Part shown: positions 5,030-32,861 of the stretch, piece by piece
How the letters are laid out: each line of letters opens with the position of its first letter
How positions within the stretch are numbered: the first letter of the stretch is position 1
Origin: a virus
Lineage: Duplodnaviria > Heunggongvirae > Uroviricota > Caudoviricetes
Strand: one strand, 5' to 3'
DNA: 64,000 nt
IMG/VR virus record: IMGVR_UViG_3300034102_002845
The notes under the pieces: model-generated
What the model was told of the DNA's origin: nothing
The model's database searches: none
The model's input: only the letters and a program-made list of their open reading frames with translations
Translations under genes and position numbers: made by a program

Positions 5030-5125
5030 AAGCTTAGCTTAAACGCCCCTTGCCAAGGGCGGTTTACCCCCTTGCCTTTCCGAAAGGAAAGCGGTATAGT
5101 TACTTTGTAACAACCTTGTCCCCCT

Positions 5126-6023: not shown

Positions 6024-6103
6024 GGCGGTTTACCGCCTTGTTTTCCCGAAGGAAAACGGTATAATTAATTCAGCTCAAGCAAACCCACTCGCCCACTCCG
6101 AAA

Positions 6104-11092: not shown

Positions 11093-11203
11093 TAGGCTAG
11101 GGCGGTTAACCGCCCAAACCGAACGGTTTCCCGACTTGTTTTCCCGAGAAGAAAGCGCTATAATAGGTTTATGCAAACAGGCCTGAGTACATCCTGATAA
11201 AAC

Positions 11204-16493: not shown

Positions 16494-16692
16494 TTCCATG
16501 CGCGGTACTGAGTACCCCCTTGGGATTTCCCTGAGCAACCCTACTCCTTAGGCCCATTGCGCTGTGGGGAACTCACCCAGGAACTTTCCCCGTGCGACTT
16601 TACTTCCTCGGCCCCTGGCGCTATACTGGTTTCACCAGGGAATTCGCCCCCTTAGTCCCCTTACGCTGTAAGGGATTCATCGGGAGACCAAT

Positions 16693-16790: not shown

Positions 16791-17255
16791 ATGGAACCGT
16801 TAAACGAAGACCCGAATTCAGCAAGCCCTCCCATTAGCCCTGGCTCAGTGGAACAGATTGAAAAGGAAGTTATTGAGTTCTTGAACACAAAGGGAGGACG
16901 TGCAAAGCTTCGTGAAGTTCAAACTAGGTTTGAGCAGGAAACAGTGAAGTCCATTCAAAACCTCACAGTCGCACCGGGGTCTGTAGTTCTCGACATGATT
17001 GCAAACAACAAGCTTTATCTCAATTCCGACTGGGAAGCTGTACTAATGCACACCTGTCCAGTCAAGGCATTACCTCTGCCCACTCGGTACGTCACCACTG
17101 GGAGCTTTTCCGTGCGCAACGATATAATCTGCCCACGCTGCGGTCTTCAGCATGTTGATCGGGGCGACTGGGCCAAGAGACTGCACAGAAAGCACCTCTG
17201 CGAACGATGCGGCTGCATCTGGCAGCCTGAGGATGGGTATAGTTTCGGAATCTGA
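16791..17255 (+). CDS. hypothetical protein with C-terminal Zn finger
   Basis: CPRC...H...H.CERC. Confidence 0.55.
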   Translation: MEPLNEDPNSASPPISPGSVEQIEKEVIEFLNTKGGRAKLREVQTRFEQETVKSIQNLTVAPGSVVLDMIANNKLYLNSDWEAVLMHTCPVKALPLPTRYVTTGSFSVRNDIICPRCGLQHVDRGDWAKRLHRKHLCERCGCIWQPEDGYSFGI

Positions 17256-17688
17256 CCCTAAGTGTTCAATTCAGTGAGCAGGGCGGTTTACCGCCTTGCC
17301 TTTTCCAGGAATTTAAGGTATAATTAACGAGAAGCTGATCGATGACACCGGAACAATGAAGTCCACATTTTACGTGAAGAACGAAAAGGTTGAAAGTACA
17401 AAAGCTCTCGTTCGCCAACACGCAACTCTAAGATTTCTGCAGAACCCTTTACAGGGGGATCTACGACGGAGTTTTGCCTTGAGGGCGAGGTCCAAGACTT
17501 TAATTCTCTCAACGTGCTGATGGAGGAGCTAAACGTCAAAGAAAAACCAGAACCAGGGAGCTTTGTTGAACATTTCTGGTCTGTTGTAAAGGGTTCCCCT
17601 CGCAATCGCAACCTGTGAGTGCTCCGGGGTTAATTCTCTCACAACCCAAGCGGGCGGTAAACCGCCCCTTTACTGGGGGTTTACACCC

Positions 17689-18237
17689 TTGGTCCTGTGG
17701 ATCAGAACCGGTATAATTAGTTCAGTCAAAGCAACCCCCCAAGCAACCGTGAAAAGCACTGAAAGCGCCGAAAGCCCCAAACCGCCTACGGTAGAACTCG
17801 TCGAGTATTGTTGGGCTAACCGAGAGCGGTACATTCGTGACAGTCTGGAGCCCATGTATAGGGATCGATTCGACGAAGCCATTGAGGGGTTCGACTGCCT
17901 TGTTGGAATGGTAGAAGATGGAACTGTGTCCACAATGGAAGAACTGTCTAAGTACGGGATGGACTACCGAGAGGCTGTAGCCAGTCCTTCACCCACCCCA
18001 CCAACCTACACGGACCGAGAAAGCATCATGGGGCTAGCCCTTGATTCAGGTTTTGAGAAGAACTGGGCGGTTGTCCAAGGCGACGGCGACACCGATGAGC
18101 TGGCGGCCGGAAACCAGGCGCTGCCGTTGCTTTACCCCTACTACCGGGCGATCCAGATCTTGCCGGCGGAGCTGATTCAGCTCCTGCAGACGGAACTCAC
18201 TGGTGAAGGCGGCAGGTTGAAAAACTACCTCGCTTAA
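17689..18237 (+). CDS. hypothetical protein (start uncertain, probably after the promoter at 17712)
   Basis: long ORF; promoter lies inside its 5' part. Confidence 0.45.
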   Translation: MVLWIRTGIISSVKATPQATVKSTESAESPKPPTVELVEYCWANRERYIRDSLEPMYRDRFDEAIEGFDCLVGMVEDGTVSTMEELSKYGMDYREAVASPSPTPPTYTDRESIMGLALDSGFEKNWAVVQGDGDTDELAAGNQALPLLYPYYRAIQILPAELIQLLQTELTGEGGRLKNYLA

Positions 18238-18345
18238 ACGACCCAAGCGCACTTTAAATCAGGTGCCCTTACCACAAAATTCGCCCCTCCCGCCCGATGG
18301 GGCGGTTACCCGCCCTTTACTTCCCCGGTCAAACCGGCTATGCTT

Positions 18346-18412
18346 AAGGGGTGGTTGAGAGCTTCGCCTCTCGCCCTGAACCCGGTCTATCCGGGGCAAC
18401 TTGAAAATTTAA
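18346..18412 (+). promoter_or_regulatory. tRNA-operon leader 1: two hairpins plus boxA-like GCAACTTGAAAATTTAA
   Basis: conserved with leaders at 25398, 27208 and 29459. Confidence 0.75.
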
Positions 18413-18425
18413 GAGTTTCACACAC

Positions 18426-18497
18426 TGGTACGTAGCTCAGTGTTAGAGCTGGGGCCTAATCAGCCAGCGGTCGCAGGTTCAATTCCTGCCGTACCAG
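18426..18497 (+). tRNA. degenerate tRNA, anticodon AAT (Ile-like), weak anticodon stem
   Basis: good acceptor, D and T arms; only 3 bp in anticodon stem; C37. Confidence 0.5.
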
Positions 18498-18523
18498 TTG
18501 CCCCTGTAAATTCAGGGGTGTAA

Positions 18524-18597
18524 GCTGCAGTAGGCGAATTGGTTAAGCCGCCAGACTTTCAATCTGGAAATTACGGGTTCAAACCCCGTCTGCAGTA
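18524..18597 (+). tRNA. trnE: tRNA-Glu(TTC)
   Basis: cloverleaf; loop CTTTCAA. Confidence 0.9.
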
Positions 18598-18702
18598 TGA
18601 CCCTGCGGTTTTAACCCCAGGGCAAACCCACCTTGCCCCTACAGATCGGGAGATAACCTCAAAACGAGTCATCGTGGACGGGGATAAGACTCGGTGGGTT
18701 TC

Positions 18703-18829
18703 TGACTAAGAGTGTTAGCGGTTAGCATGTTCCTTTGGGCGAAAACAGTAAGATAGAACGAAGGCCAAGTTCCGTATCTGTAAGTAGTTTTGGACAGAGG
18801 AGGTTGAGGTTCGAGTCCTCATTAGTCAA
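18703..18829 (+). ncRNA. tRNA-like RNA with ~52-nt hairpin insertion in the anticodon arm
   Basis: TGACTAA/TTAGTCA acceptor, TGAGG-TTCGAGT-CCTCA T arm, insert closed by AAAAC/GTTTT. Confidence 0.65.
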
Positions 18830-19039
18830 TTGTCCCCGGCGAAACCGGGTAAGAGGGAAAATTGTCCCTAGGCAACAGGGTGCTTCGTTATGCCCTGACC
18901 ATCAAACATAACGCCATTTCTCGTGAGGGTAAGATCGAGACTCTGCATCCCGGAGTTAAGGGACGCTTCCCCTGGTTGTCGGACAACGAGGCGTTGCATC
19001 TTACGAAAATGATGCAAGTCACAGCTGGTAACTGTGACA

Positions 19040-19101
19040 GGGGATAAGTCTGGTTGACGTTCTGTGCACAAGAACCACGGGTTCGATTCCCGGTTTCTTC
19101 G
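19040..19101 (+). ncRNA. compact 62-nt tRNA-like RNA (GCA in 7-nt loop)
   Basis: GTC/GAC D stem, GTTCT/AGAAC stem, T arm, 1-nt variable region. Confidence 0.45.
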
Positions 19102-19342
19102 TTGGTTTGCGACAGCAAACCGGAAATTGCCCTGGAGGCACACTCACAGGCAAACGCGAGAGAAATTATGGACAATAGAGCCCGAGACGAATTCTCGGGT
19201 ACTCACCCGGCACCCTTCGGGTCCCTTCAAGGGATAACTCCTTAGCCTCATAATGTGAGTGCCTTTCGGGCATTATTCTGCCTGACACAATTCCTCACCG
19301 GACGGTGGGGTGGACCACGGTGATACGGGTTAGGACGAATGT

Positions 19343-19420
19343 TGAAACGGAGCTGGATGCCCATACTCGTACAGGATGGCCTCTGTGCGAACAATGCAGG
19401 TTCGATCCCTGCCGTTTTAA
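19343..19420 (+). ncRNA. degenerate tRNA-Tyr(GTA)-like RNA
   Basis: TGAAACG/CGTTTTA acceptor, GCAGG-TTCGATC-CCTGC T arm, poor D arm. Confidence 0.4.
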
Positions 19421-19705
19421 TTGCCTATGACTAACCACCAGGGAGTCTTGGTAAGGTTTAATCACATGGCAACAAGGTGTCTCGCAGCCTTGACCAAAAG
19501 TGCAGGACCGAAGCGGGGTTTTCACCGCTTGCCGAAACTCTCTGAGGCATGATGAGGGGTTGATGTACCACCAACTGAACTGGTACTCCTGTCAACTTGG
19601 GCCAAGTTGTAAAGTCCCGGCTGGTAATCGGGGAAATCGGCGTTGTTCCTGGAGCTGTATCTGGGGCAGACTCTGCAGAGGCGCCAACTCTCGAAAGAGG
19701 GTTTC

Positions 19706-19781
19706 CGGGACATCGCCTAACTTGGCTATGGCACCACTTTTGGGAAGTGGAAAAATCTCAGTTCGAATCTGAGTTTCCCGA
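19706..19781 (+). tRNA. trnP: tRNA-Pro(TGG)
   Basis: CCACT-TTTGGGA-AGTGG. Confidence 0.85.
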
Positions 19782-19958
19782 TTGCCACTTTGCGCTGGAA
19801 AGATAAACCAGGCTGCCGGTGGCTCAAACCCCCCTTGTTACAAAATTCCTGCTAAACAAGGGGGGGGGGTAAGCGCAGGCTCATCCTTAGATGCCATTTG
19901 TTGGTTTCCTTAGTCTAAGGTGGTATAAAGGTAAACCAACAATCCCTCCGGAGGGGAA

Positions 19959-20023
19959 GGTGCGTGGCTTAGTGGTAAAGCTGGTCCGAAAGGCTGAACG
20001 CAGGTTCGATTCCTGCCGCACCA
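19959..20023 (+). ncRNA. mini-tRNA with anticodon arm replaced by a GAAA tetraloop hairpin
   Basis: GGTGCG/CGCACC acceptor, GCTT/AAGC D stem, canonical T arm. Confidence 0.6.
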
Positions 20024-20252
20024 CTCAAAGTGAGATTCGAGAGTTAGTCGCCTCGACACCCGCAGGGGTGTAGCTTAAAAGACTCCCTAACAGAGCGCAC
20101 TCAACCCCAGTCATCCCACGGCGCTGGTCGCATAGCCGAAGGCACTTCCTGAAGAAGGAACAACTACCGCTGGCGGACCTGGGGCGGTTTGTTGTAAAAC
20201 AATTGGTAATCAGTAGCGTCTCGCGAGCAACGCTGATACAACCAGGTCCTGC

Positions 20253-20320
20253 GACCCTAAGTTAATGCCTCCACGCGGCAGGGTTGGTAACTTTCCCTTT
20301 TGGGAAAGGCTAAATTAACT
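20253..20320 (+). ncRNA. HDV-like self-cleaving ribozyme
   Basis: P1 GACCCT/AGGGTT with G+1.U wobble, P2 AGTTAAT/ATTAACT, P3 GCC/GGC, L3 TCCACGC, P1.1 CC/GG, P4 CTTTCCC/GGGAAAG, J4/2 GCTAA. Confidence 0.85.
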
Positions 20321-20467
20321 GGGAATTTCTCATCCCGTACGTGAGAAACCTCGACCAAGGTGAGAAGTCAGTCGCTCAGGACACTCTGGGAAAACCTGCC
20401 AAGGGTTAATTTGGACGGAACTTTCATCCGTTACGTGAAAGCTCTCCTTTGGATTTCGAAGGAATCC

Positions 20468-20545
20468 GGGGTACTTTGACAGCGATTTGCTTTAAAACCT
20501 CCAGTAGGTCTGGCAATTCGGTGGGTTTGATTCCCGCTTACTCCA
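20468..20545 (+). ncRNA. tRNA-like RNA with G3.U70 and A73, no D stem
   Basis: GGGGTAC/TTACTCC-A acceptor, GTGGG-TTTGATT-CCCGC T arm. Confidence 0.45.
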
Positions 20546-20924
20546 TTGGATTTTCTCAAATCCGACACCCCAGAAAAGTTTACTACCCCTGGTAGTGACT
20601 ATAATGGATGAGTCACTGCTCTGCTTGGGCGAAAGCTAAACGGATAACCGGACCGTTCAGCTCCAAGTATCAGGTTTCCCCTGGGTTAGCTCCCAGGGGG
20701 TTTAACCCATTCTAGAAACTGGGATCGTAAGGAAAACGTCGTTAAGTTCTCGTCACTGCCCTGTAAACAGACGTTAACATGGGGTGCTTTCTTGAGGGCT
20801 GTCTTGCCGCTGGTGCCGCTAGATGAAACACTCTTACCGGCCAGTTTGCGAGCCCTGCTGAAAGCTTAGTCCCCTCTGTGCGGCATTGGTTCGCCAAGGC
20901 CACGGGATTAGCCTCCCGTGCTAC

Positions 20925-21000
20925 CCAGGTATCGCCTAACTTGGCTATGGCACCTCTTTCGGGAAGAGGAATAGTCCCGGTTCAAATCCGGGTGCCTGGA
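20925..21000 (+). tRNA. trnP: tRNA-Pro(CGG)
   Basis: CCTCT-TTCGGGA-AGAGG. Confidence 0.9.
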
Positions 21001-21071
21001 TGTCCCACTAACGTGGGAGCAAGGAAACTTGATAACTAAGAAACTATTCTGTCGCAAATGCGATAGCATTT

Positions 21072-21144
21072 GGGGTCTTAGCTCAGTTGGTAGAGCATCT
21101 CTGTGGCACGGAGAAGGTGACCGGTTCGACCCCGGTAGATTCCA
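21072..21144 (+). tRNA. trnA: tRNA-Ala(GGC)
   Basis: G3.U70; loop GTGGCAC. Confidence 0.9.
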
Positions 21145-21172
21145 CTTTGTGGGCAACCACAAACTAGATCAA

Positions 21173-21246
21173 GGGCTTACATGTACCAAGGCTGGCGAGA
21201 TTGCTTTGCAAGCAAACTGTGAAGAGTTCGATTCTCTTTAGGTCCA
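21173..21246 (+). tRNA. trnA: tRNA-Ala(TGC), atypical D arm
   Basis: G3.U70; loop TTTGCAA. Confidence 0.8.
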
Positions 21247-21264
21247 CTTTCGCTAACGCGAAAA

Positions 21265-21382
21265 CACGAGGGAGAAATGTCGGTTCAAGTCCGACCCTGG
21301 GAGCCTATAACGTAGGGTCCTGGGTAGTTTAACTGGTGCCAAGGACTTGTTATCAGTACGCACAAGTCCAAAAACTTCTCCC
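21265..21382 (+). ncRNA. apparently circularly permuted tRNA (3' half 21265-21303 precedes 5' half 21318-21382)
   Basis: acceptor TCCTGGG/CCTGGGA and anticodon stem TTCTCCC/GGGAGAA pair between the halves. Confidence 0.7.
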
Positions 21383-21386
21383 ACAA

Positions 21387-21459
21387 CCCCTCATAGTGTA
21401 GCGGCCAAGCACGCACCTCTGTCTAAGGTGTATCACGGGTTCAAATCCCGTTGAGGGGG
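21387..21459 (+). tRNA. trnD: tRNA-Asp(GTC)
   Basis: CACCT-CTGTCTA-AGGTG. Confidence 0.9.
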
Positions 21460-21495
21460 TTATTCCGAGGGGTGGCCACCCCAATGACGAATAAA

Positions 21496-21555
21496 GCCAG
21501 AGTCCCTGGATAGGGAAGAGTCGCGACAACTGGGTTCGAATCCCAAGCTCTGGTG
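21496..21555 (+). ncRNA. 60-nt mini-tRNA-like RNA lacking an anticodon arm
   Basis: GCCAGAG/CTCTGGT acceptor, TCCCT/AGGGA hairpin, TTCGAAT T loop. Confidence 0.55.
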
Positions 21556-21640
21556 TTGATACTTCGTATCAATTGCTGCTCCGGCAACGCTGCGGTGTTG
21601 CCTAAGAGCAAATCCCCTTTCTTTAAACCTCAAAGAAAGA

Positions 21641-21700
21641 TTTCACGATCCTACTGGAGGATTGCCATCGGCAAAGCAGGTTCGAGTCCTGCCTTGGAAA
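21641..21700 (+). ncRNA. 60-nt mini-tRNA-like RNA
   Basis: ATCCT/AGGAT and TGCC/GGCA hairpins, GCAGG-TTCGAGT-CCTGC T arm. Confidence 0.5.
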
Positions 21701-21791
21701 TTGGTGCGAAGATCCCTAAATCTTTAAGCCAGCTTGCCTCAGAATCCAGCTGTTTGCTTAGGGGCGAACGATCTCTGGTGAAAAGAGCGAG

Positions 21792-21864
21792 TCTCTCATC
21801 GACTAATTGGACAAGTCCCCGCCCGCTCAGGGTGGTAATCCAGGTTCGAACCCTGGTGAGAGTG
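21792..21864 (+). tRNA. trnE: tRNA-Glu(CTC)
   Basis: CCGCC-CGCTCAG-GGTGG; G at position 33. Confidence 0.75.
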
Positions 21865-21893
21865 TTTGCTCTAGCGTGCTAGAGTAGTTAAGA

Positions 21894-21967
21894 GCCCGAG
21901 TGACCCAGCGGAAGAGGTGCCTGACTTAAAATCAGGAAGTCGTAGGGTTCGAATCCCACCTCGGGTA
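21894..21967 (+). tRNA. trnL: tRNA-Leu(TAA), short variable loop
   Basis: CCTGA-CTTAAAA-TCAGG. Confidence 0.85.
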
Positions 21968-22018
21968 TTGCTCCTTTGGCCTGGGCCTGGAAGCTCAGTG
22001 AATAAGGAACAAACAATC

Positions 22019-22094
22019 GCGTATGTACCCCAACCGGAAGAGGGGCAACACTGAGACTGTTGTTATGTGGAGGTTCGACCCCCTCTCATGCGCA
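22019..22094 (+). tRNA. trnL: tRNA-Leu(GAG), short variable loop
   Basis: CAACA-CTGAGAC-TGTTG. Confidence 0.8.
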
Positions 22095-22167
22095 TTTTCC
22101 TCTCACCCCTTTCCTCACGGTGGCGTGAACTTGGAAAGAACCCTACGGTTGAAAACCATGGGCAAAA

Positions 22168-22238
22168 TCTCGAATCGACTAGTGGTAGGTCGCCTGTCTC
22201 TGAAACAGGAAACTTTGGTTCGAATCCAAATTTGAGAA
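22168..22238 (+). tRNA. trnQ: tRNA-Gln(CTG)
   Basis: CCTGT-CTCTGAA-ACAGG; U1-A72. Confidence 0.85.
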
Positions 22239-22291
22239 TAACGCTTGGGGCGTGTGTGCGGTCCTGCGTACGTTTCTCGTATAGAAACCTT

Positions 22292-22380
22292 GGAAGAGTG
22301 GTCGAGTGGCTGATGACGATTGCTTGGAAAGCAATTGAGGCGCAAAAGCGTCTCCGGAGGTTCGAATCCTCTCTCTTCCG
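22292..22380 (+). tRNA. trnS: tRNA-Ser(GGA)
   Basis: long variable arm; loop TTGGAAA. Confidence 0.9.
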
Positions 22381-22439
22381 TCTCACTTGAGAGTAGTACA
22401 GCATATAGGGTAAATTAAGGAAGTCAATACGAGCTTATT

Positions 22440-23141
22440 ATGTCGCTAGGTTACTTCTCAGACGAGGTAGTTGAGTGGCTTTACGAAAATTACTCAGAGT
22501 TGGCCGGGAGTATTCTCTACGAATTTACAACGTGCCAGCGACCCAACGGGACTGTCTACGGCACGGCAGGAACTTGTCGAAAAGGCACAGAGATAGAACA
22601 ACGCCGCCAGGAGTCAATAACTCACCTGAACACTACCCTGGCTTCCTTAAGGGACAAGCTAGATAAGTCCCCCAAAGAGGGCAGGGACAGGATAAATAGA
22701 CTGATCACCAAGTTGGAAACGGACCTAAAGGCTATTCAGGGTGTCAAAGGGGTGGAAAAGAAAAGTACGGGGGTCGGTAGTAGGGCAACAAGTCAGGATC
22801 TTTCTCGAAATACTAGAGATGCCTCCTCGATGACGCCTGAAAGGTCTCAAAATAAGGAGTATGGGTTTTACGGTACTACTCAATACGCGAATCCCAAGGA
22901 AGTGGAAGAGCGCTGGCGTAACGCATCACGAGGGATTCAGTCTCAAGGGGTGCTTCCGATATACGCACGACGCCTGCTCGACGCGTCGTGGGGTAGGCAT
23001 TTGGCAAATGAGCTGGGGAAGACACCGACTGACAAGGTTTGGAAAACGGTCCAAGGAAAGCTTGAGAAGCGTGGTTCACCAGAACGAAAACACTTCCTGA
23101 AGATGTTGAGGATGGTCACACAAGAGGACTACGAAGATTGA
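22440..23141 (+). CDS. hypothetical protein with C.R..G..YGT.G.CRKG motif
   Basis: motif shared with 40625..41434. Confidence 0.7.
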   Translation: MSLGYFSDEVVEWLYENYSELAGSILYEFTTCQRPNGTVYGTAGTCRKGTEIEQRRQESITHLNTTLASLRDKLDKSPKEGRDRINRLITKLETDLKAIQGVKGVEKKSTGVGSRATSQDLSRNTRDASSMTPERSQNKEYGFYGTTQYANPKEVEERWRNASRGIQSQGVLPIYARRLLDASWGRHLANELGKTPTDKVWKTVQGKLEKRGSPERKHFLKMLRMVTQEDYED

Positions 23142-23321
23142 TTGGGCTTGATGGCCCTGCGTAGGCCCCAGAGAGCTCCGAACTCGGGTATAGGCCCCTT
23201 GGGGCTGAGTTCAGGTGAGTGGCCCTTCAAGGACATTCAGGTGCTTTCAGGGCGGTCTTCACTGCGTAAAGGGCGGTTTACCTCCCTTTGTTTTTCACGG
23301 CGGAAACGGTATAATTAAAGG

Positions 23322-23510
23322 GTGAGTGGTGCCAATGACATGGAAGTCTTTGCTGTAATGATCGAACCTTACGGGTTTGTTGACTCCTTTGGTTTCGAAG
23401 ATGCCCGTCTGCGTCTTTTTGTGCGTCAGGAACACGCTGAAGCTTACCGAAAGGAGCTTACCGATGAGGGGTACGACGGGGTCCTGTTGAAACCCCTCCC
23501 AGTGCTTTAA
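23322..23510 (+). CDS. hypothetical protein (probably leaderless, GTG start)
   Basis: start 6 nt after TATAAT. Confidence 0.5.
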   Translation: MSGANDMEVFAVMIEPYGFVDSFGFEDARLRLFVRQEHAEAYRKELTDEGYDGVLLKPLPVL

Positions 23511-23555
23511 CTCGACTCAGTTTACACCTTGTCCCTGGAAACTCCGAATTTAACC

Positions 23556-23993
23556 ATGAAAATCAACTTCGACACCATCGCCCTGCCAACAGAGTGCTCT
23601 GGTGGGGTTGTCTCAGGGAATTTCTTCCTGGTTGCTGACAACGACCTAGACTTTGAGATCGCCCACGCAGACGTAATTGAGGCGGAAACAAACTACGAAA
23701 AATACAAGAATTTCCCCCTAGGCAAGGAAAGACGGTTTAAAGTTCTCTATGAGGCGTGCGAAAGGCTACTAAAAGCCCTGTGGAAAGTTCGTAAGGTTCA
23801 AGGAACGGACGAGGCAGTTTTTCTCCTGAGACTTCATAAAGGGTTCGCCAGGAACCTTTACAATCTTCTTCAATACGGCTGGTCCATCGACCCGAAGCTG
23901 GCGAATACCCGGAAGTTTAAGGACATAACTTACGAATTTTTCAGTTGGGGAGGAGACTACTCCTACGACTTTTTCAATCGCACAATGCCGTAA
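23556..23993 (+). CDS. hypothetical protein
   Basis: ORF. Confidence 0.6.
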   Translation: MKINFDTIALPTECSGGVVSGNFFLVADNDLDFEIAHADVIEAETNYEKYKNFPLGKERRFKVLYEACERLLKALWKVRKVQGTDEAVFLLRLHKGFARNLYNLLQYGWSIDPKLANTRKFKDITYEFFSWGGDYSYDFFNRTMP

Positions 23994-24082
23994 GCGTGTT
24001 AGGGTTGTGTGGCCCACAGACCCGTTGAGGGCGGTTTTCCCCCTTTGTTTTGCTCGGCAAAACCGCTATACTTACAGGGTAA

Positions 24083-24286
24083 GTGATTCTAATCACAACG
24101 ATGAGAACTCCCCTCGGATCTTACCGAAATCGCGCCCACAGAGAAATAACAGAGGTTTGCGCCATGGTGCACCCCGACTGTATAGCTTATTTGTATGGTT
24201 TCTCTCCCTGGCCGAACCTTGAATTGCGAAGAACCGTCTCAGAGACTTATGAACGTTTGCGAAACGACTTCCCTGGTTGCCACTGA
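24083..24286 (+). CDS. hypothetical protein
   Basis: after promoter. Confidence 0.45.
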   Translation: MILITTMRTPLGSYRNRAHREITEVCAMVHPDCIAYLYGFSPWPNLELRRTVSETYERLRNDFPGCH

Positions 24287-24345
24287 AAGATCATAAGCAA
24301 CCCCACTCACAAAAGTTTTGACTCCGCTAGTCTCACCAGCTCACA

Positions 24346-24534
24346 ATGGACCACATTTTCGTCCTCCTAATTTTCAGATGGGGAGACTTTGACATTCGGC
24401 AAAGCCTACTCGTCTCTGCTCACTCAACTGAGACCCTCGCCCTAACAGCCGGCTTCAACCTTGGCTTACCTAACGAACCTCCAGAAGACGACGGGGACTG
24501 GTTCGGAGTTGAGAAGGTTAGGTTCGGAGTCTAA
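24346..24534 (+). CDS. hypothetical protein
   Basis: ORF. Confidence 0.45.
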   Translation: MDHIFVLLIFRWGDFDIRQSLLVSAHSTETLALTAGFNLGLPNEPPEDDGDWFGVEKVRFGV

Positions 24535-24543
24535 CCATCCCTT

Positions 24544-24945
24544 TTGTTAATACACACAAGCAAACCTATGTTCTCCACAAAACCTTCGCTCATCGAGAAA
24601 ACTACATTGTTTTCGATTGACAATCACTCAGACAAGCAGGTTACGGTGACCACTCGCTTTACCCACCCTAGCACAGGTGAAGAAGTAGGAGAGTATTCCT
24701 ATATAGTCTTCTGTGAGAGTGCTTACCTTGGCAGCAACGGGGACGCGGTTCTGGTTAGCCCGTGGAAATGGGTGGGACACTGGGTCACCTATTACTTGAA
24801 GGACGGTGTCACGGAGGTATCCGTGCCCTCCGTCTCTCACGTTCAGGCACGCAGAGTCCTTAATCGAAGAACCTCGTGGTGGGGTCGAGTAATGAATACG
24901 CTAACTGGGTACGGGAGCGGCGAATTGTTTGCACCTTGGAACTAG
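24544..24945 (+). CDS. hypothetical protein
   Basis: ORF. Confidence 0.55.
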   Translation: MLIHTSKPMFSTKPSLIEKTTLFSIDNHSDKQVTVTTRFTHPSTGEEVGEYSYIVFCESAYLGSNGDAVLVSPWKWVGHWVTYYLKDGVTEVSVPSVSHVQARRVLNRRTSWWGRVMNTLTGYGSGELFAPWN

Positions 24946-25073
24946 GCCACTAGGCCAGTAGGGCGGTTTCCCGCCCTTGTATCTACCCCGCAGAAACGCT
25001 ATAGTTACTTCAGTGCTTTAGACAAAGCTGCTCTCTGGCATGCATCCACATTACACAAAACCACGCGAGAATC

Positions 25074-25307
25074 ATGGAAGACCACACCGAACGTTACTTA
25101 ATTGAGCAGAAAGTTGAAAACTTTCTCAAAGCCCAACAGACACTGAAAGGTTTGAATCAGATTAGAGAGAGTCAAGAAGTTAATAAGATCGGGGACATAG
25201 AGGGCGACCACGTGAAAGCCGACGGTCTCCTAGTGGACTTCGTTCTCTATCTGGGGTTCACAGAGATCGTAGAAGCTTACGAGTCTATCGGAAAATGGTA
25301 CGCCTGA
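25074..25307 (+). CDS. hypothetical protein
   Basis: GDIEGDHVKAD.LL...Y..IGKWYA phage motif. Confidence 0.6.
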   Translation: MEDHTERYLIEQKVENFLKAQQTLKGLNQIRESQEVNKIGDIEGDHVKADGLLVDFVLYLGFTEIVEAYESIGKWYA

Positions 25308-25397
25308 AAGAGGTTTACTTTTTGTAAAGTGCGCTAAGCTAGCTTGCGACTGGGGTTCAAGAGGGCGGTTTCCCCGCTTTACTTCCCTGGTGAAAAA

Positions 25398-25475
25398 CGC
25401 TATACTAAAGGGGTGGTTGGGAAGCTCGGCTTCCTCCTCGCTCCCGCTCTTGCGGACGGCACCTCGAAAACTTAA
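25398..25475 (+). promoter_or_regulatory. tRNA-operon leader 2 with boxA-like GCACCTCGAAAACTTAA
   Basis: same architecture as the other leaders. Confidence 0.75.
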
Positions 25476-25481
25476 TACCAA

Positions 25482-25554
25482 GGGAGCGTAGCTCAGCGGT
25501 AAGAGCAATCGGTTGATAACCGATAGGCCGCCTGTTCAAATCAGGCCGTTCCCA
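25482..25554 (+). tRNA. trnI: tRNA-Ile(GAT)
   Basis: ATCGG-TTGATAA-CCGAT. Confidence 0.9.
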
Positions 25555-25617
25555 TTTTCGCATTAGCGAAAAAGGTTGCCCAAGTACCTGCGATGGTGCT
25601 TTCTAAACTTGGGATTT

Positions 25618-25690
25618 GGGTTTGTAGCTCAATTGGCAGAGTAACCGGCTCTTACCCGGAACGTTGTGGGTTCGAATCCCACCAAACCCA
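25618..25690 (+). tRNA. trnK: tRNA-Lys(CTT)
   Basis: loop CTCTTAC. Confidence 0.85.
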
Positions 25691-25797
25691 TGGCCTTCGG
25701 GCATTTTTCGTAGAGCGAAAAAACGAACTGAAACGTTCCTCGCAGAGGTGAGACGCTCTGCCCCTATCGGCTAACTTTTGTTTTCCGATAAGAAAAC

Positions 25798-25870
25798 GGG
25801 GGCACATGTTCCAAGGTGGCGAGGACGCTTCGCAAGCGACTTGTGATCGGTTCAATTCCGATTGTCTCCA
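25798..25870 (+). tRNA. trnA: tRNA-Ala(CGC), atypical D arm
   Basis: G3.U70; loop TTCGCAA. Confidence 0.75.
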
Positions 25871-26022
25871 TTTTCGCACTCGCGAAAATTCCTTAAGCGA
25901 GGTTGCCGGTTTGCAACTTAAGGGATGGTAATAACCGGCTAGAGTAAGGATTCCTACTCATAAGGGGACGCTCGCGACCCCAGAGTGCTTCTTAATACCC
26001 CCTGCCGTAATGCAGGGCTCAA

Positions 26023-26103
26023 TGGGGTGTAGCATAATTGGTAATGCAGCTGGCTGTTAACCAGTGTCGAAAGACAATGAAGGTTCGAATCCTTCCACTC
26101 CAG
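26023..26103 (+). tRNA. trnN: tRNA-Asn(GTT) with extra GAAA-capped variable arm
   Basis: loop CTGTTAA; TGTC-GAAA-GACA arm. Confidence 0.85.
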
Positions 26104-26169
26104 TTTCTCCTACAGGAGAATACTAAACGGGAAGAGAACCTATTTCAGATTCTCTTCATACGTTAAGAA

Positions 26170-26324
26170 CGAAGTGTGCCGGAATTGGTATACGGCGGTG
26201 TGGATTCAGCCAATACGGATGGGGTTGTGAACAAATAGCAACCTCCTAGCTCATGGTTGCAACCACCGATCAGGTAACAGCTAGACGTAATCCTGATATG
26301 AGAGTTCGAGTCTCTCCACTTTGG
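26170..26324 (+). ncRNA. 155-nt tRNA-Leu-like scaffold with expanded anticodon domain and variable arm
   Basis: CGAAGTG/CACTTTG acceptor, Leu-type D loop, GAGAG-TTCGAGT-CTCTC T arm. Confidence 0.65.
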
Positions 26325-26418
26325 TTACCCTAAAACTTAGCCCGTGTACAACGGGTGAAAAAAAGGGGGTAAAGTTTCTTTAACTGTGTACCCTTATAAG
26401 AGGGATTGCGCAGCAATC

Positions 26419-26503
26419 CGCCCCATCGACTAACGGCGTCGTAGCCAGGTTAGGTCGCTACTTTCTTAAGGTAGAAATGCCGGTTCGACTCCGGCTGGGG
26501 CGA
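26419..26503 (+). tRNA. trnK: tRNA-Lys(CTT) with ~13-nt hairpin insertion in the D loop
   Basis: CTACT-TTCTTAA-GGTAG; GGC-GTCGTA-GCC insertion. Confidence 0.7.
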
Positions 26504-26506
26504 TTC

Positions 26507-26629
26507 CCCTAAGGTAAATAGCGGAACTAAAACTGAGTTCGATTCTCGGGATACTTGGAAGTTGTGTGGGTTCGATTCCCAACTAGAGTGCCGGCGCACG
26601 GGAAGGTTCGAAGCCTTCTATCTTAGGGT
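26507..26629 (+). ncRNA. RNA with three tandem T-loop hairpins inside a closing stem
   Basis: TTCGATT, TTCGATT and TTCGAAG hairpins; CCCTAAG/CTTAGGG closure. Confidence 0.6.
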
Positions 26630-26632
26630 GAT

Positions 26633-26721
26633 GGAAGATTGGCCGAGTGGTTGAAGGCGACGGTTTGCTAAACCGTTGAGCTGCGCAAGCAGCTCCGTGA
26701 GTTCGAATCTCACATCTTCCG
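26633..26721 (+). tRNA. trnS: tRNA-Ser(GCT)
   Basis: long variable arm; loop TTGCTAA. Confidence 0.9.
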
Positions 26722-26751
26722 TTGTTCTCTCCGAAGAACTACAAGAAAAAT

Positions 26752-26822
26752 GCCCTTCAAGCATTGTGGTGATGCAGCAGTTTTGTAAACTGCAGAGCAG
26801 GGTTCGATTCCCTGGCAGGGCT
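26752..26822 (+). tRNA. trnT: tRNA-Thr(TGT)
   Basis: GCAGT-TTTGTAA-ACTGC. Confidence 0.85.
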
Positions 26823-26934
26823 TTGCTCCGTGATTCGCTCAGTTAACCGAACGAACCGGGGCGGTTTCCCACCCTTTCGCTTCACGGTGAAACCAGCTAA
26901 ACTTAAATTGTTACCGTTGGTCCTCCAAATCAAA

Positions 26935-27159
26935 ATGGCTCAAGCAACTTTCGGCACCCTTAAAGGGTTGAGTGTTCGCAAAGAGAACGAGCTTTGTGTA
27001 TCCATCGCTGGAGAACTCACCGAGCTTTTGGAAGAGGGAGCATCCGCTCCTACCCGAGACGAGATTCTTGCGAAGCTGCAGGACTGCGTCAGGATGTACG
27101 GCAACGGGCACCTTGACGATTTCTTCGTTCGCAAGGTTGTATTTGAGTTCACCCTTTGA
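26935..27159 (+). CDS. hypothetical protein
   Basis: ATG after promoter, within track ORF 26830..27159. Confidence 0.55.
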   Translation: MAQATFGTLKGLSVRKENELCVSIAGELTELLEEGASAPTRDEILAKLQDCVRMYGNGHLDDFFVRKVVFEFTL

Positions 27160-27207
27160 TACGGCGGTTCCCGTCCTTGTTTCTGCCCCGCAGAAACGCT
27201 ATACTAA

Positions 27208-27283
27208 AGGGGTGGTTGAGAGAGGGCTTCGCCCTCACCTCCTCCCCGCTTTTGCGAAAGCAAAAGGCAACTTGAAAATTTAA
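27208..27283 (+). promoter_or_regulatory. tRNA-operon leader 3 with GAAA hairpin and boxA-like GCAACTTGAAAATTTAA
   Basis: conserved leader. Confidence 0.75.
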
Positions 27284-27288
27284 TACGG

Positions 27289-27360
27289 GGGGCATTAACT
27301 CAGCGGTAGAGTATCCGGCTTTTAACCGGTCAGTCCTCGGTTCGAATCCGAGATGCCCCA
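27289..27360 (+). tRNA. trnK: tRNA-Lys(TTT)
   Basis: loop CTTTTAA. Confidence 0.9.
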
Positions 27361-27427
27361 TTTTCTGCTTTGCAGAAAAACGGCAGCACGTTCAGGGACC
27401 GATTCAATTCCGGTCAACAGAGTTAAC

Positions 27428-27586
27428 GGGAAATTAGCTCAGCGGTAGAGCCCTGGGCACATTACCCAGGTGAGTGCTTCAGTACGAGTGTCGAATGGCG
27501 GATTGATCCCCGACCTTCGCCTTTGTAACAGCACGCTCACAACCTGATCAGTTGAGAGAGCGTTGGTTCGATTCCAACATATCCCA
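27428..27586 (+). ncRNA. 159-nt tRNA(CAT)-like RNA with 92-nt variable-region insert
   Basis: CTGGG-CACATTA-CCCAG arm, normal D and T arms, insert 27470-27561. Confidence 0.7.
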
Positions 27587-27636
27587 TTGAAAACCTTTCG
27601 GTTTTCTAGCTACAAACTTACCGTGTTATGGTAATT

Positions 27637-27724
27637 GGAGAGAGTCCGGCTGGACGAGGAGACCGTCTTGAAAACGGTTACAGGGGGGAGACCCCCTGCG
27701 CAGGTTCGATTCCTGTTCTCTCCG
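27637..27724 (+). tRNA. trnS: tRNA-Ser(TGA)
   Basis: loop CTTGAAA; long variable arm. Confidence 0.85.
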
Positions 27725-27769
27725 TTTGCCCCACTGTGGGCAATCTGTTCACCCCACTGTGGTTGAAGT

Positions 27770-27841
27770 GCGAATGTAACTCAGCGGTAGAGTACCTCGT
27801 TGCCAACGAGAATGTCGAGGGTTCAAATCCCTTCATTCGCT
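27770..27841 (+). tRNA. trnG: tRNA-Gly(GCC)
   Basis: loop TTGCCAA. Confidence 0.9.
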
Positions 27842-27869
27842 CTTTCCCTTAAATAGGGATCACAGTCAA

Positions 27870-27951
27870 GCCCGCCTGGTGAAATTGGTATATACGCTAG
27901 TTTTAGGAACTAGTGCCGAAAGGCGTGGGAGTTCGAGTCTCCCGGCGGGTA
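27870..27951 (+). tRNA. trnL: tRNA-Leu(TAG)
   Basis: loop TTTAGGA; long variable arm. Confidence 0.9.
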
Positions 27952-28001
27952 TGTTCTCTTTACGGAGAACTCTAGCTCCTTGACTTAATTCAGGGTGCAA
28001 A

Positions 28002-28120
28002 GAGCAAGTAGCTCAGTTGGTAGAGCGGCAACCTCCTCTGAGTCTCGCAAGAGACTCTCGGTAAAGGACCGTAACGCTGGAGGGCAAAGCAAGCCGTTGG
28101 TTCAAGTCCAACCTTGCTCC
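28002..28120 (+). ncRNA. 119-nt tRNA scaffold with anticodon arm replaced by a branched domain
   Basis: GAGCAAG/CTTGCTC acceptor, canonical D and T arms, GAGTCTC-GCAA-GAGACTC hairpin. Confidence 0.7.
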
Positions 28121-28195
28121 TTTCCTTGCTACCTCAGCCAAGGGTTTACTTCCCCCTTGGGAAGCTATCATAGCTTCTATACTCAAGGCAGCCGC

Positions 28196-28266
28196 TTCGA
28201 AGTCGTCTAACGGTAGGACACCTCCCTTTGAAGGAGATTATATAGGTCCGAATCCTATCTTCGAAA
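28196..28266 (+). tRNA. trnQ: tRNA-Gln(TTG)
   Basis: loop CTTTGAA. Confidence 0.8.
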
Positions 28267-28317
28267 CTTGCCTTGAGAAGTTTACTCCTAGCTAAAAACG
28301 CTATAGTAAAGGTGTAA

Positions 28318-28391
28318 CGCGGACGAGTGTCACGGTAGTCACGCTGGGCCCATAACCCAGAGGAGCAGGGGTTCAATTCCCCGGTCCGCCA
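28318..28391 (+). tRNA. trnfM: initiator tRNA-fMet(CAT)
   Basis: unpaired position 1; three consecutive G-C pairs in the anticodon stem. Confidence 0.8.
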
Positions 28392-28413
28392 TTGTTTTGC
28401 TTTCGCAAAACTT

Positions 28414-28464
28414 AGGTGATTCAGCGATTCATACCTCACTTTCTTTGGTAGAAAACAATCATCT
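28414..28464 (+). ncRNA. 50-nt repeated structured element, copy 1
   Basis: GRTGATT-CAGCGATTCA...TTTC-TTTGGTA-GAAA..AATCATC. Confidence 0.75.
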
Positions 28465-28495
28465 AGCCTAACTTTGTTGGGAACTCTCAAAGCAT

Positions 28496-28568
28496 GGTGG
28501 TAGAAGCCTAAGGGATGGGCAACTGGTTGTGAACCAGTAATTAGCGGGTTCGAGTCCCGTCTATCACC
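28496..28568 (+). tRNA. trnH: tRNA-His(GTG) with encoded G-1
   Basis: loop TTGTGAA; C73. Confidence 0.85.
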
Positions 28569-28603
28569 CTTTTCGCTTACGCGAAATTACACTAAAGCAA
28601 AAT

Positions 28604-28676
28604 GCGGTCGTAACTCAGTCGGTAGAGTGTCTTCCTTCCAAGTAGAAAGTCGCGTGTTCGAGTCACGTCGACAGCT
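28604..28676 (+). tRNA. trnG: tRNA-Gly(TCC)
   Basis: loop CTTCCAA. Confidence 0.8.
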
Positions 28677-28707
28677 CTTTTCTCTCACGAGAAAACTCAA
28701 GTAAAAT

Positions 28708-28789
28708 GCGGGTATAGCTCAGCGGTAGAGCACTTGTTTTCCAAACAAGAGGCGAATAGTTCACGCAGGTTCAAATCCTGTTACCCGCT
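28708..28789 (+). tRNA. trnG: tRNA-Gly(TCC) with 15-nt variable region
   Basis: CTTGT-TTTCCAA-ACAAG; GCGAA-TAG-TTCAC arm. Confidence 0.8.
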
Positions 28790-28820
28790 CTTTTCTCTCA
28801 CGAGAAAACTTAAGTAAAAT

Positions 28821-28891
28821 GCCGGAGTCGTCTAGTGGTAAGACTACTGCTTCCAAACCAGAAAACGGGGGTTCGATTCCTCTCTCCGGTG
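28821..28891 (+). tRNA. trnW: tRNA-Trp(CCA), weak anticodon stem
   Basis: loop TTCCAAA by canonical numbering; G73. Confidence 0.6.
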
Positions 28892-28957
28892 TAGTTTGCA
28901 CGGAAAAAGGACGGTTTAGACCCCTGTGTCTGCCTCGCAAAACGCTATGCATACCTT

Positions 28958-29167
28958 ATGGAAAACAGCCCATCTTGGCACTCGTACAAAGCCGTCAACA
29001 TAGACGGGATCTACTACAACACACCCTTCATTAAAGAGGTTGTCGAGCAGTTGATCCGGAAAAGCTTCCTCGTTCGATCCGGACTTGATGAATATTCCCT
29101 TGCCGAGGTCTTTGCACTCAAAGTTCTTGACGGTAGTAACAAGCTTCCTTCTGAAAACGGGCGGTAA
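28958..29167 (+). CDS. hypothetical protein (probably leaderless)
   Basis: ATG 6 nt after -10-like hexamer. Confidence 0.55.
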   Translation: MENSPSWHSYKAVNIDGIYYNTPFIKEVVEQLIRKSFLVRSGLDEYSLAEVFALKVLDGSNKLPSENGR

Positions 29168-29226
29168 ACCGCCCTTTCCCTTTCCGAGGAAAGGCGCTAT
29201 GATTGCACTGTAGCCGGAACAAACTA

Positions 29227-29397
29227 ATGACCTTTTATCTCAAGAAAGCCGTGACCGGGGATTCTGTTGGGGGTGAAAGCTACCCAAGCTACGGCGAGGC
29301 AATAAACGCAGCTCGCGACATTTCCCGCTCAACTGGTGAGGACATTTACATTGTCGATGCAGTTACGGGGGCGGTGTGGGACACCGTATTAACCTGA
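29227..29397 (+). CDS. small hypothetical protein
   Basis: after promoter. Confidence 0.5.
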   Translation: MTFYLKKAVTGDSVGGESYPSYGEAINAARDISRSTGEDIYIVDAVTGAVWDTVLT

Positions 29398-29458
29398 AGG
29401 CCCCCAGCAAAGGGACGGTAAACCGCCCTTTCGCCCCACGGAGAAACCGGTTATACTA

Positions 29459-29527
29459 AAGGAGTGGTTGGGAAGCTCGGCTTCCGCCTCGCTTCCGCTC
29501 TTGCGGGGGGGCAACTTGAAAATTTAA
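29459..29527 (+). promoter_or_regulatory. tRNA-operon leader 4 with boxA-like GCAACTTGAAAATTTAA
   Basis: near copy of leader 2. Confidence 0.75.
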
Positions 29528-29532
29528 ACATT

Positions 29533-30475: not shown

Positions 30476-30673
30476 CCAGAAAGATACAGCGTGCCCTGTT
30501 TAAGGGACACCCCGTGTACGAAAAAGAGCGGGGTGCAAGGTTAGTGAGAAACCTGACATGAGCCGATAACTCACTGTGGGCGAGGTGTTTGCTATAGCCC
30601 AGCAAAAGTCCAGGAGTGGTTTCCTGGCAGCCCCTTAGGGGGTGAAAGACCTTGGTGAAAACCCAAGGCGAAA

Positions 30674-32546: not shown

Positions 32547-32861
32547 ATAGCAAGGTTAACCAAATCGCCCTAGGGCGGTTTACCGCCCTTGCACCGACGG
32601 TTTCCACCCTTGTTTCTGCGGGACAGAAACGCTATAGTAGTTAGGTTGGAACCAAAGCACCATGGACCCCCCTGAACCAAAACCTTAGTCTGACCGACCG
32701 TGTCTGGCGGTTTGCCGCAGATCACGTTGACCCAGACCCCTTAATTCAGGCTAGATTCCTATCCCTTGTCTCAGCTCTCCTGGACGCAGGGATCGAGTCA
32801 GGACGCGAAGCTGAACCCGTGGGTTAACACCCCACCCACCCCTTGACCCTTAGAGCCAACG

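Follow-up and report, generated by a model that had tools for sequence, protein, structure and literature searches.

Leaders of phage tRNA arrays resemble the boxA-bearing leaders of picocyanobacterial rRNA operons

Four leader elements laid out like the leader of a host ribosomal RNA (rRNA) operon (rrn) were identified at the heads of transfer RNA (tRNA) arrays in a giant freshwater cyanophage of the Caudoviricetes, IMG/VR record IMGVR_UViG_3300034102_002845. The stretch analysed, referred to below as the window, is 64,000 nucleotides (nt) long, and each leader lies directly behind a promoter and consists of a conserved 5' motif, two hairpins and a box resembling boxA. Sequence comparison indicates that these leaders almost certainly mimic the rrn leader of the picocyanobacterial host, and it is likely (probability roughly 0.7) that they functionally recruit the Nus factors of the host.

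The window is a tRNA-rich phage region, with 43 tRNA genes and a two-piece transfer-messenger RNA predicted by ARAGORN, and box and motif counts were made over its whole length. The box GCAMCTYGAAAAYTTAA has four exact matches (18396, 25459, 27267 and 29511), all on the + strand, against a chance level of 0.08 in shuffled sequences; none of 100 shuffles reached four. The 5' motif GGRGTGGTTG was found without mismatch only at 18348, 25410, 27209 and 29461. Alignment and direct reading showed that these sites belong to four copies of one module of ~130 nt, spanning 18300-18412, 25363-25475, 27163-27283 and 29412-29527 (Table 1). The module opens with a GC stem-loop of the type GGGCGG-TTA-CCCGCCC. 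The -35 and -10 hexamers of a sigma-70-type promoter come next, separated by 17 nt, and are followed by AAAGG, the 5' motif, the two hairpins in turn and finally the box. The -35 hexamers (TTTACT, TTGTTT or TTTCGC) begin within the T-run behind the stem, and the -10 hexamer is TATACT or TATGCT. The box occurs in two variants, GCACCUCGAAAA and GCAACUUGAAAA, and a tRNA starts 4-12 nt 3' of each copy; the first module heads ~4 kb of tRNAs and other non-coding RNA, as far as 22382. The first-pass annotation of this DNA, which had reported a motif, two hairpins and a box shared by four promoter-proximal tRNA leaders, was confirmed by both the pattern counts and the alignment.

That annotation had also named a cyanobacterial boxA of similar sequence, which agrees with the literature. 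The cyanobacterial spacer boxA is given as GAACCTTGAAAA followed by CTGCATA (PMC8461337, quoting Iteman et al., 2000), and for the spacer boxA of marine picocyanobacteria a published primer, reverse-complemented, gives GAACCTTGACAACTGCATAG (PMC9769826). Scanning bacterial genomes with GAACCTTGACAACTGCATAG recovered rrn loci of Prochlorococcus, Synechococcus, Vulcanococcus and related metagenome-assembled genomes, in which the box of the 16S-23S spacer, GAACCTTGACAACT, sits immediately 3' of the boxB hairpin. A weight matrix was then built from 13 distinct phage boxes alone and applied to both strands of 112 host rrn loci, each of at most 8 kb. Host boxA sites were ranked first or second in all 112 loci. 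The spacer boxA, scoring 17.7 bits, was first or second everywhere, and the only site to outscore it was, where present, a leader box 325-425 nt 5' of 16S, examples being TGCACCTAGAAAATTTAA in Prochlorococcus and AGCACCTGGACAACTAAA in Synechococcus CS-1330. The leader box has the consensus G(C/A)ACCT(G/A)GA(C/A)AAYT and follows two hairpins, the stems of which covary among hosts. It lies 55-79 nt behind a conserved GGTGTTGTAAGTT, which is likely to be the -10 element. As a separate observation, host rrn leaders (e.g. L131:84-180 and L167:1050-1150) present GGTGTTGTAAGTT, two covarying hairpins, boxA and then an invariant AAGTTTAGGAACTGAYGCTTT, which might correspond locally to boxC or mark where the 16S processing stem begins.

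Two other searches for host sites were less informative. A leader-boxA expression, [CT]T[CT]GA[AC]AA within 420 nt of 16S, gave no match because the true box is more distant from 16S and carries a purine at a position fixed in the expression; an alignment of the last 330 nt before host 16S contained only an E. coli-like GCACTCTTTGAA element. Other exact matches to GMACCTTGAMAA in host genomes fell in coding sequence and were attributed to chance.

The same box recurs in a third host context. In the tuf-rpsJ spacer of two different genomes, GAACCTCGACAACT follows a hairpin ~45 nt before the start of the gene for S10 (NusE). This looks like a case of the autoregulation of Nus factors through boxA sites, NusE among them, that Baniulyte et al. 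(2017, PMC5725501) proposed for gamma-proteobacteria. The pattern GMACCTNGAMAAYT, used as the host consensus, was matched 14 times across five host genomes, and its reversed control not at all; 11 of the matches were in rrn leaders and spacers, two in the tuf-rpsJ spacer and one elsewhere. A single motif common to three Nus-related contexts is good indirect evidence for a boxA read by picocyanobacterial NusB-S10.

The alignment to host rrn boxA proposed by the first-pass annotation was run, and host boxA proved similar to the phage box. The copy at 25459 fits the host consensus exactly and those at 18396, 27267 and 29511 differ by one mismatch each; at up to one mismatch GMACCTNGAMAAYT was found at six window sites, compared with 0.96 expected. 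The spacer 12-mer at up to two mismatches gave 22 window sites against 16.7 expected, which is not compelling on the window alone. The better match for the phage box is the host 16S leader boxA rather than the spacer boxA, and the case rests on the phage family, the leader-type host box and the shared architecture. The distance from the end of the -10 hexamer to the box is also comparable: the window copies range from 51 to 61 nt and the host sites from 55 to 79 nt. Box-like matches in the window at 13345, 43791 and 27108 were considered to be chance.

Related leaders were found in other phages. The nearest record, a 277-kb genome (G001) that is 22% related to the window and was used for comparison, has five leader copies, two of which read GACAA where the others read GAAAA. 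When viral contigs were searched with 14 fixed bases, most of the matches were attributed to chance; patterns combining motif, gap and box were specific. Two such specific scans yielded more two-hairpin leaders and, on 15 other contigs, a short form, TGGTATTCT-TAAAG-GGTGGTT-GAGA-GACCACC-A-GCACCT(T/C)GA(A/C)AATTTAA-tRNA-Lys. On this comparison the 5' motif GGRGTGGTTG reads as the 5' arm and loop of a GNRA-tetraloop hairpin that is extended in the long form of the window. Related leaders are recorded at tRNA arrays in ~20 metagenomic phage contigs and in the cultured cyanophages S-PM2, S-CREM1, B3 and S-CBWM1 (Table 1). The hairpin-box unit heads the main tRNA array in S-PM2, S-CREM1, B3 and at the first S-CBWM1 leader, and the second S-CBWM1 leader heads two further tRNAs. 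The pattern GMAMCTNGAMAAYT had 11 matches in G001, S-PM2, S-CREM1, B3 and S-CBWM1 (~1.03 Mb), compared with none for the reversed control, and 10 of the 11 lie no more than 25 nt 5' of a tRNA at the head of an array. A second match in S-CREM1 lies inside a large open reading frame (ORF) and was rejected as chance, as was a BLAST match to the box region in Bacillus phage vB_BsuS_PJN02, which is A/T-rich, within a small ORF and has no tRNA nearby.

The boxes of related phages are at most one base from those of the host and fit the host consensus exactly, and their hairpins covary. The short-form box GCACCTTGAAAATTTAA equals the Prochlorococcus leader GCACCTAGAAAATTTAA at 16 of 17 positions, the TTTAA tail included. 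In B3 the box GAACCTTGACAA is the host spacer 12-mer, and ACCTTGAAAACTG of S-PM2 represents 13 consecutive nt of the general cyanobacterial boxA plus D4 (PMC8461337). The hairpin-box unit is retained in distant groups (Kyanoviridae, Aokuangvirus and the jumbo group of the window) while the other leader sequence differs.

In folds made for each sequence, 22 of 24 phage leaders have a hairpin whose end lies 0-3 nt from the start of the box, compared with 23% of random window positions; as these leaders are related, a binomial figure overstates the significance of the difference. Nine different stems occupy this place, including GGTGGT/ACCACC, GGTGGG/CCCACC, GTTGA/TCAAC, CCCGG/CCGGG, CCGC/GCGG and TTTTGC/GCAAAA. 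In corresponding copies of the window and G001 the stems differ but stay paired (GGGAAGC/GCTTCC and GGAAAGC/GCTTTCC; CCGC/GCGG and CCCGG/CCGGG). The 5' motif and box are thus nearly invariant, the stems change in pairs and the box is unpaired in centroid folds, which is the pattern expected of an RNA element composed of a structural hairpin and a sequence-specific single strand. The z-scores of single-sequence folds are weak (-0.6 to -2.4). MAFFT and RNAalifold on ten long leaders gave a poor consensus, the stems being unlike in sequence and length, and hairpins were scored per sequence instead.

The promoter cassette is far more widespread than the leader. The GC stem-loop GGGCGGT(TTA/AAA)CCGCCC gave 48 pattern matches, compared with 2.4 expected, at ~30 loci in the window; it is often contiguous with, or extends into, the -35 of a promoter TTTACT-N17-TATAMT-WAAAGG, and the cassette is also present in Synechococcus phage S-CBWM1. 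A scan of -10 and start regions located promoters of the same class with an upstream stem-loop at 17319, 23310 and 53052, which reach ORFs within 30-40 nt and have neither hairpins nor box. The earlier statement that the motif is not seen before protein-gene units holds at these three promoters. Further promoters of this class, at 16622, 28178 and 28302, directly precede single tRNAs without a leader. The leader thus supplements a general promoter cassette, and in the window it occurs solely where four tRNA arrays begin.

Two of the leaderless promoters, TATACTCAAGG and TATAGTAAAGG (28178-28196 and 28302-28318), adjoin tRNA-Gln and a tRNA-like gene, and transcripts from them would begin nearly at the mature 5' end. 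tRNA-Asp (30674) is preceded by a different leader (30590-30673) of three hairpins that opens with CCAGGAGTGGTTTCCTGG, an echo of the GGAGTGGTT motif, and has no box.

Metatranscriptome evidence was confined to assembled Logan contigs, which cannot place 5' ends. RNA contigs cover the tRNA operons, and coverage begins in the bin after 18303. Contig depths in the non-tRNA part of operon 1 (18904-21307) were ~100-1000 in two runs of one study, a value that is not a measure of expression. No contigs from those two runs were found for 17101-18302, the 1.2 kb before the first promoter.

NusB was detected in four of four picocyanobacterial host genomes, and NusB, NusG and S10 were all detected in the Synechococcus elongatus control. 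None of the three was found in five phage genomes, so any reader of the box would be that of the host. The RNA-binding domain of Rho was absent from the four picocyanobacterial genomes and from the S. elongatus control, and present in nine other bacterial controls. The proposal of the first-pass annotation that host rrn antitermination is recruited is accordingly divided: the likeness to the rrn leader is supported by the host comparison, but in hosts without Rho the leader is unlikely to serve chiefly for antitermination as understood in E. coli, where it protects untranslated RNA against this factor. Speed, pause resistance and RNA folding are likelier benefits than relief from Rho. The rrn complex suppresses pausing and serves as a ring-shaped RNA chaperone at the exit channel (PMC8632103). 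The influence of boxA on the kinetics of elongation has also been a subject of study (Vogel and Jensen, 1995, as cited in PMC8632103).

Transcription from the module promoters, Nus binding and an effect on elongation are steps that we infer, as follows. Each module would join a host-RNA-polymerase promoter to a transcribed leader of ~50-60 nt, which would copy the promoter-proximal host rRNA leader, with one or two stable hairpins at the boxB position and then a single-stranded boxA. The boxA leaving the polymerase would be bound by host NusB-S10 (NusE), and NusG and NusA, possibly with SuhB and S4, would then give the polymerase the form of an rrn-type elongation complex, which would elongate faster, ignore hairpin-dependent pauses and weak terminators and help the nascent RNA to fold. 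These properties would suit arrays of 1.5-4 kb of tRNAs and structured RNAs without trailing ribosomes, in which each RNA is a potential pause or terminator-like hairpin. RNase P would later remove the leader from the first tRNA.

Several observations weigh against recruitment of host Nus factors. The sequence GCAACTTG is present in three of the window copies and in all five from G001; its A stands at boxA position 5 (base 4 of the box), where every host boxA found has C. C5 is shared by E. coli and Aquifex boxA, key contacts are G2, C5, C/U6 and U8, and a C5A change in lambda boxA strongly lowers NusB-NusE binding (PMC3177189). G2, C6 and U7 are kept in all four window boxes, and position 8 is C in the one window copy without A at position 5; host sites vary at position 8 (A, G, T or C) and none varies at C5. 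The clade-conserved A may reflect a tuned, lower affinity or a different reader. Neither a boxC equivalent nor the conserved AAGTTTAGGAACTGA that follows the host box was seen in the phage leaders, where the 3' side of the box consists only of TTTAA and 4-12 variable nt before the tRNA. In E. coli, boxC or the boxA-boxC linker is the contact for NusA and SuhB. Several tRNA units of the window (16622, 28178 and 28302) are without the leader, and in S-CRM01 and S-SKS1 no box was found near the first tRNAs at up to three mismatches, so the leader is not required for expression of phage tRNAs. Some RNA contigs bridge the promoters (26879-27384 and 26693-27289), which neither shows transcript starts nor excludes read-through. 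Finally, the function attributed to cyanobacterial boxA itself rests on homology.

Among other explanations, the best placed, though unlikely, is that the box is an RNA processing or stability signal at which RNase E or RNase P would be directed to shorten the leader 5' of the first tRNA, and that it resembles boxA only secondarily. The box is single-stranded in folds, has an A/U-rich 3' end (GAAAATTTAA) and always lies 4-25 nt before the 5' end of a tRNA; the first tRNA is tRNA-Lys(UUU) in several lineages, and the box could travel with that gene. However, two of the window boxes stand before tRNA-Ile and one before tRNA-Leu, tRNAs further inside these arrays are processed with no box in front of them, and stand-alone tRNA genes in five host genomes have no such box. 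Nor would a processing site require GMACCT, the G/C-containing 5' half that is conserved and common to the three host Nus contexts.

A decoy role appears improbable. Leaders freed by RNase P would titrate host NusB-S10 and so depress rRNA synthesis or disturb NusE autoregulation, which would be compatible with four near-consensus promoters, with a leader released from every transcript, with the presence of the same box at host rrn and before rpsJ, and with the high depth reached by metatranscriptome contigs over the first operon. Titration needs no long RNA operon behind the box, however, and one strong unit would be enough, while the placement copies the rrn layout with a similar promoter distance; phages also generally need the ribosome supply of the host during infection. 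Slightly less probable again is a module derived from a mobile promoter cassette, or from part of a host rrn leader that was captured, and maintained through duplication and recombination without a present role for the box. The stem-loop and promoter are indeed repeated, the stem-loop recurring ~30 times in the window, and GTGGTTGAGAG, with which the phage leader begins, is similar to the first hairpin in the leader of one host (GTCGCTGAGAG). Yet corresponding copies from the window and from G001 retain pairing and box although their hairpin sequences are unlike, distant phage families keep the hairpin-box unit with the remaining leader changed, and cassettes of the same class stand before ORFs without a box. 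A role of the box at the DNA level, as an operator bound by a regulator of phage or host origin ~55 nt downstream of the start site, is very improbable: a strictly conserved element of 14-17 bp at a fixed promoter distance would suit an operator, but the box is on one strand only and not palindromic, its coupling to covarying hairpins indicates a constraint at the RNA level, and in hosts it recurs in the 16S-23S spacer, far from any promoter.

In lambda nut sites boxA precedes boxB, the phage N protein is bound to boxB and host NusB-NusE is engaged via boxA. Recruitment of host Nus factors by the leaders described here would resemble this system in using a phage RNA element with boxA, an adjacent hairpin and, as predicted, host NusB-NusE. 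The order differs, being hairpin then boxA as in rrn (PMC8632103), and hairpin stems and loops vary freely. No dependence on an N-like protein was evident, the search for such genes having covered the Nus families. Bacterial rrn signals (boxB-boxA-boxC) nucleate an elongation and chaperone complex with NusA, NusB, NusE, NusG, SuhB and S4 (PMC8632103, PMC6614797). The phage leader shares with them a hairpin followed by a single-stranded boxA, a promoter-proximal position and a long untranslated structured RNA behind it; it differs in heading tRNA arrays rather than rRNA and in the absence from view of boxC or a leader-trailer helix, and the anti-Rho rationale of E. coli rrn does not carry over to hosts that are without Rho.

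In phage T7, a boxA downstream of the early promoters A1-A3, which the host polymerase uses, is described as functional (Savalia et al., 2010, as cited in PMC3709561). In both cases a host-type boxA stands just behind strong host-polymerase promoters and no phage N-like protein is needed; the T7 boxA heads early messenger RNAs (mRNAs) in Rho-bearing E. coli, in contrast to the tRNA and non-coding RNA operons here, with four copies per 11 kb and hosts without Rho. BoxA sites before suhB, nusB and rpsJ (PMC5725501) are likewise outside rRNA operons, and the present hosts carry the box before rpsJ. Those sites repress mRNA, via Rho in E. coli, whereas the phage sites would be expected to promote transcription of stable RNA. 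The PeSL (promoter-early stem-loop) elements of Arbiol et al. (2010) are reportedly the promoter cassettes of T4-type phages. PeSL too has a GC stem-loop just before or overlapping an early sigma-70-type promoter and occurs in many copies; it is said to be a promoter cassette only, whereas the four cassettes here add a transcribed rrn-like leader.

Full-text literature searches found no paper linking cyanophage or phage tRNA genes to boxA or antitermination. New here are the cyanobacterial version, a host consensus from three contexts, cultured phages in which it is testable and hosts without Rho. Many large phages carry dozens of tRNA genes, and efficient transcription of long untranslated arrays has hardly been studied. 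If confirmed, recruitment of host Nus factors would mean that cyanophages, including the model phage S-PM2, copy the host rRNA leader for their tRNA arrays, which is directly testable. The comparison also supplies a working picocyanobacterial boxA consensus from three independent contexts (rrn leader, rrn spacer and before rpsJ), a natural system for the role of Nus-boxA in bacteria without Rho, and, for annotation, a simple marker of the starts of phage non-coding RNA operons. A wider rule is speculative and rather doubtful: tRNA-rich phages would head stable-RNA operons with host boxA to obtain an rRNA-type polymerase, the ancestral job of boxA-Nus would be speed and folding, and C5A boxes and the leader freed by RNase P would tune or compete for NusB-S10. 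Were it true, the cyanophage case would show that the ancestral job of boxA-Nus is not anti-Rho antitermination, and competition for NusB-S10 would link phage tRNA output to host ribosome synthesis.

Table 1. Coordinates and sequences of the leader modules and of related or candidate sites. Positions are those of the window unless a host locus is named.
Feature	Position	Strand	Details
Module 1 promoter cassette	18300-18344	+	stem-loop GGGCGG-TTA-CCCGCCC 18300-18315; -35 TTTACT 18316-18321; 17-nt spacer; -10 TATGCT 18339-18344
Module 1 leader	18348-18395	+	GGGGTGGTTG 18348-18357; hairpin 1 GAGAG/CTCTC 18357-18372; hairpin 2 CCCGG-TCTAT-CCGGG 18381-18395
Module 1 box GCAACTTGAAAATTTAA	18396-18412	+	12 nt to tRNA-Ile(aat) at 18425; 1 mismatch to host consensus GMACCTNGAMAAYT
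Module 2 promoter cassette	25363-25406	+	stem-loop GGGCGG-TTT-CCCCGC; -35 TTTACT 25378-25383; -10 TATACT 25401-25406
Module 2 leader	25410-25455	+	GGGGTGGTTG 25410-25419; hairpin 1 GGGAAGC-TCG-GCTTCC 25419-25435; hairpin 2 CCGC-TCTT-GCGG 25444-25455
Module 2 box GCACCTCGAAAACTTAA	25459-25475	+	0 mismatches to host consensus GMACCTNGAMAAYT; 6 nt to tRNA-Ile(gat) at 25482
Module 3 promoter cassette	27163-27205	+	stem-loop GGCGG-TTC-CCGTC 27163-27175; -35 TTGTTT 27177-27182; -10 TATACT 27200-27205
Module 3 leader	27209-27266	+	GGGGTGGTTG 27209-27218, base of extended hairpin 1 (apical AGGGC-TTC-GCCCT 27223-27235); hairpin 2 CTTTTGC-GAAA-GCAAAAG 27249-27266; fold z-score -2.4
Module 3 box GCAACTTGAAAATTTAA	27267-27283	+	5 nt to tRNA-Lys(ttt) at 27289
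Module 4 promoter cassette	29412-29457	+	stem-loop GGGACGG-TAAA-CCGCCC 29412-29428; -35 TTTCGC 29429-29434; -10 TATACT 29452-29457
Module 4 leader	29461-29509	+	GGAGTGGTTG 29461-29470; hairpin 1 GGAAGC-TCG-GCTTCC 29471-29485; hairpin 2 TTCCGC-TCTT-GCGGGGG 29493-29509
Module 4 box GCAACTTGAAAATTTAA	29511-29527	+	4 nt to tRNA-Leu(caa) at 29532
Weak internal spacer-type box candidate	21003-21037	+	hairpin TCCCAC-TAAC-GTGGGA 21003-21018, then GAAACTTGATAACT 21024-21037; 12.2 bits vs 24-28 for leader boxes
GC stem-loop, example loci	5058-5072, 6024-6038, 11101-11115, 17282-17296, 17653-17667, 29160-29174, 32574-32588, 53013-53027		
Host tuf-rpsJ boxA	L270:601-614, L272:604-617		host genomes G006 (L270) and G004 (L272)
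S-PM2 leader			GGTGGG...CCCACC-A-GCACCTTGAAAACTG (BLAST)
S-CREM1 leader			GGAGG...CCTCC-A-GCACCTTGACAATTTAA (BLAST)
B3 and B23 leader			GTTGA-GAAA-TCAAC-A-GAACCTTGACAATTTAA (BLAST)
S-CBWM1, two leaders			GAACCTAGACAATT and GCAACTTGAAAATT; the first has the GGGCGGTAAACCGCCCTTTAC promoter cassette of the window (BLAST)

Three minor features of the region were also recorded. The weak internal box candidate of Table 1 lies 2.7 kb into operon 1, in the gap between tRNA-Pro and tRNA-Ala, and may be a chance match. ARAGORN reported a tRNA with anticodon TTA, a possible ochre suppressor (26419-26503). The long-arm tRNA-Ser(tga) at 27636 (27636-27725) scored 53 bits with the Rfam tRNA-Sec model, compared with a gathering score of 47.

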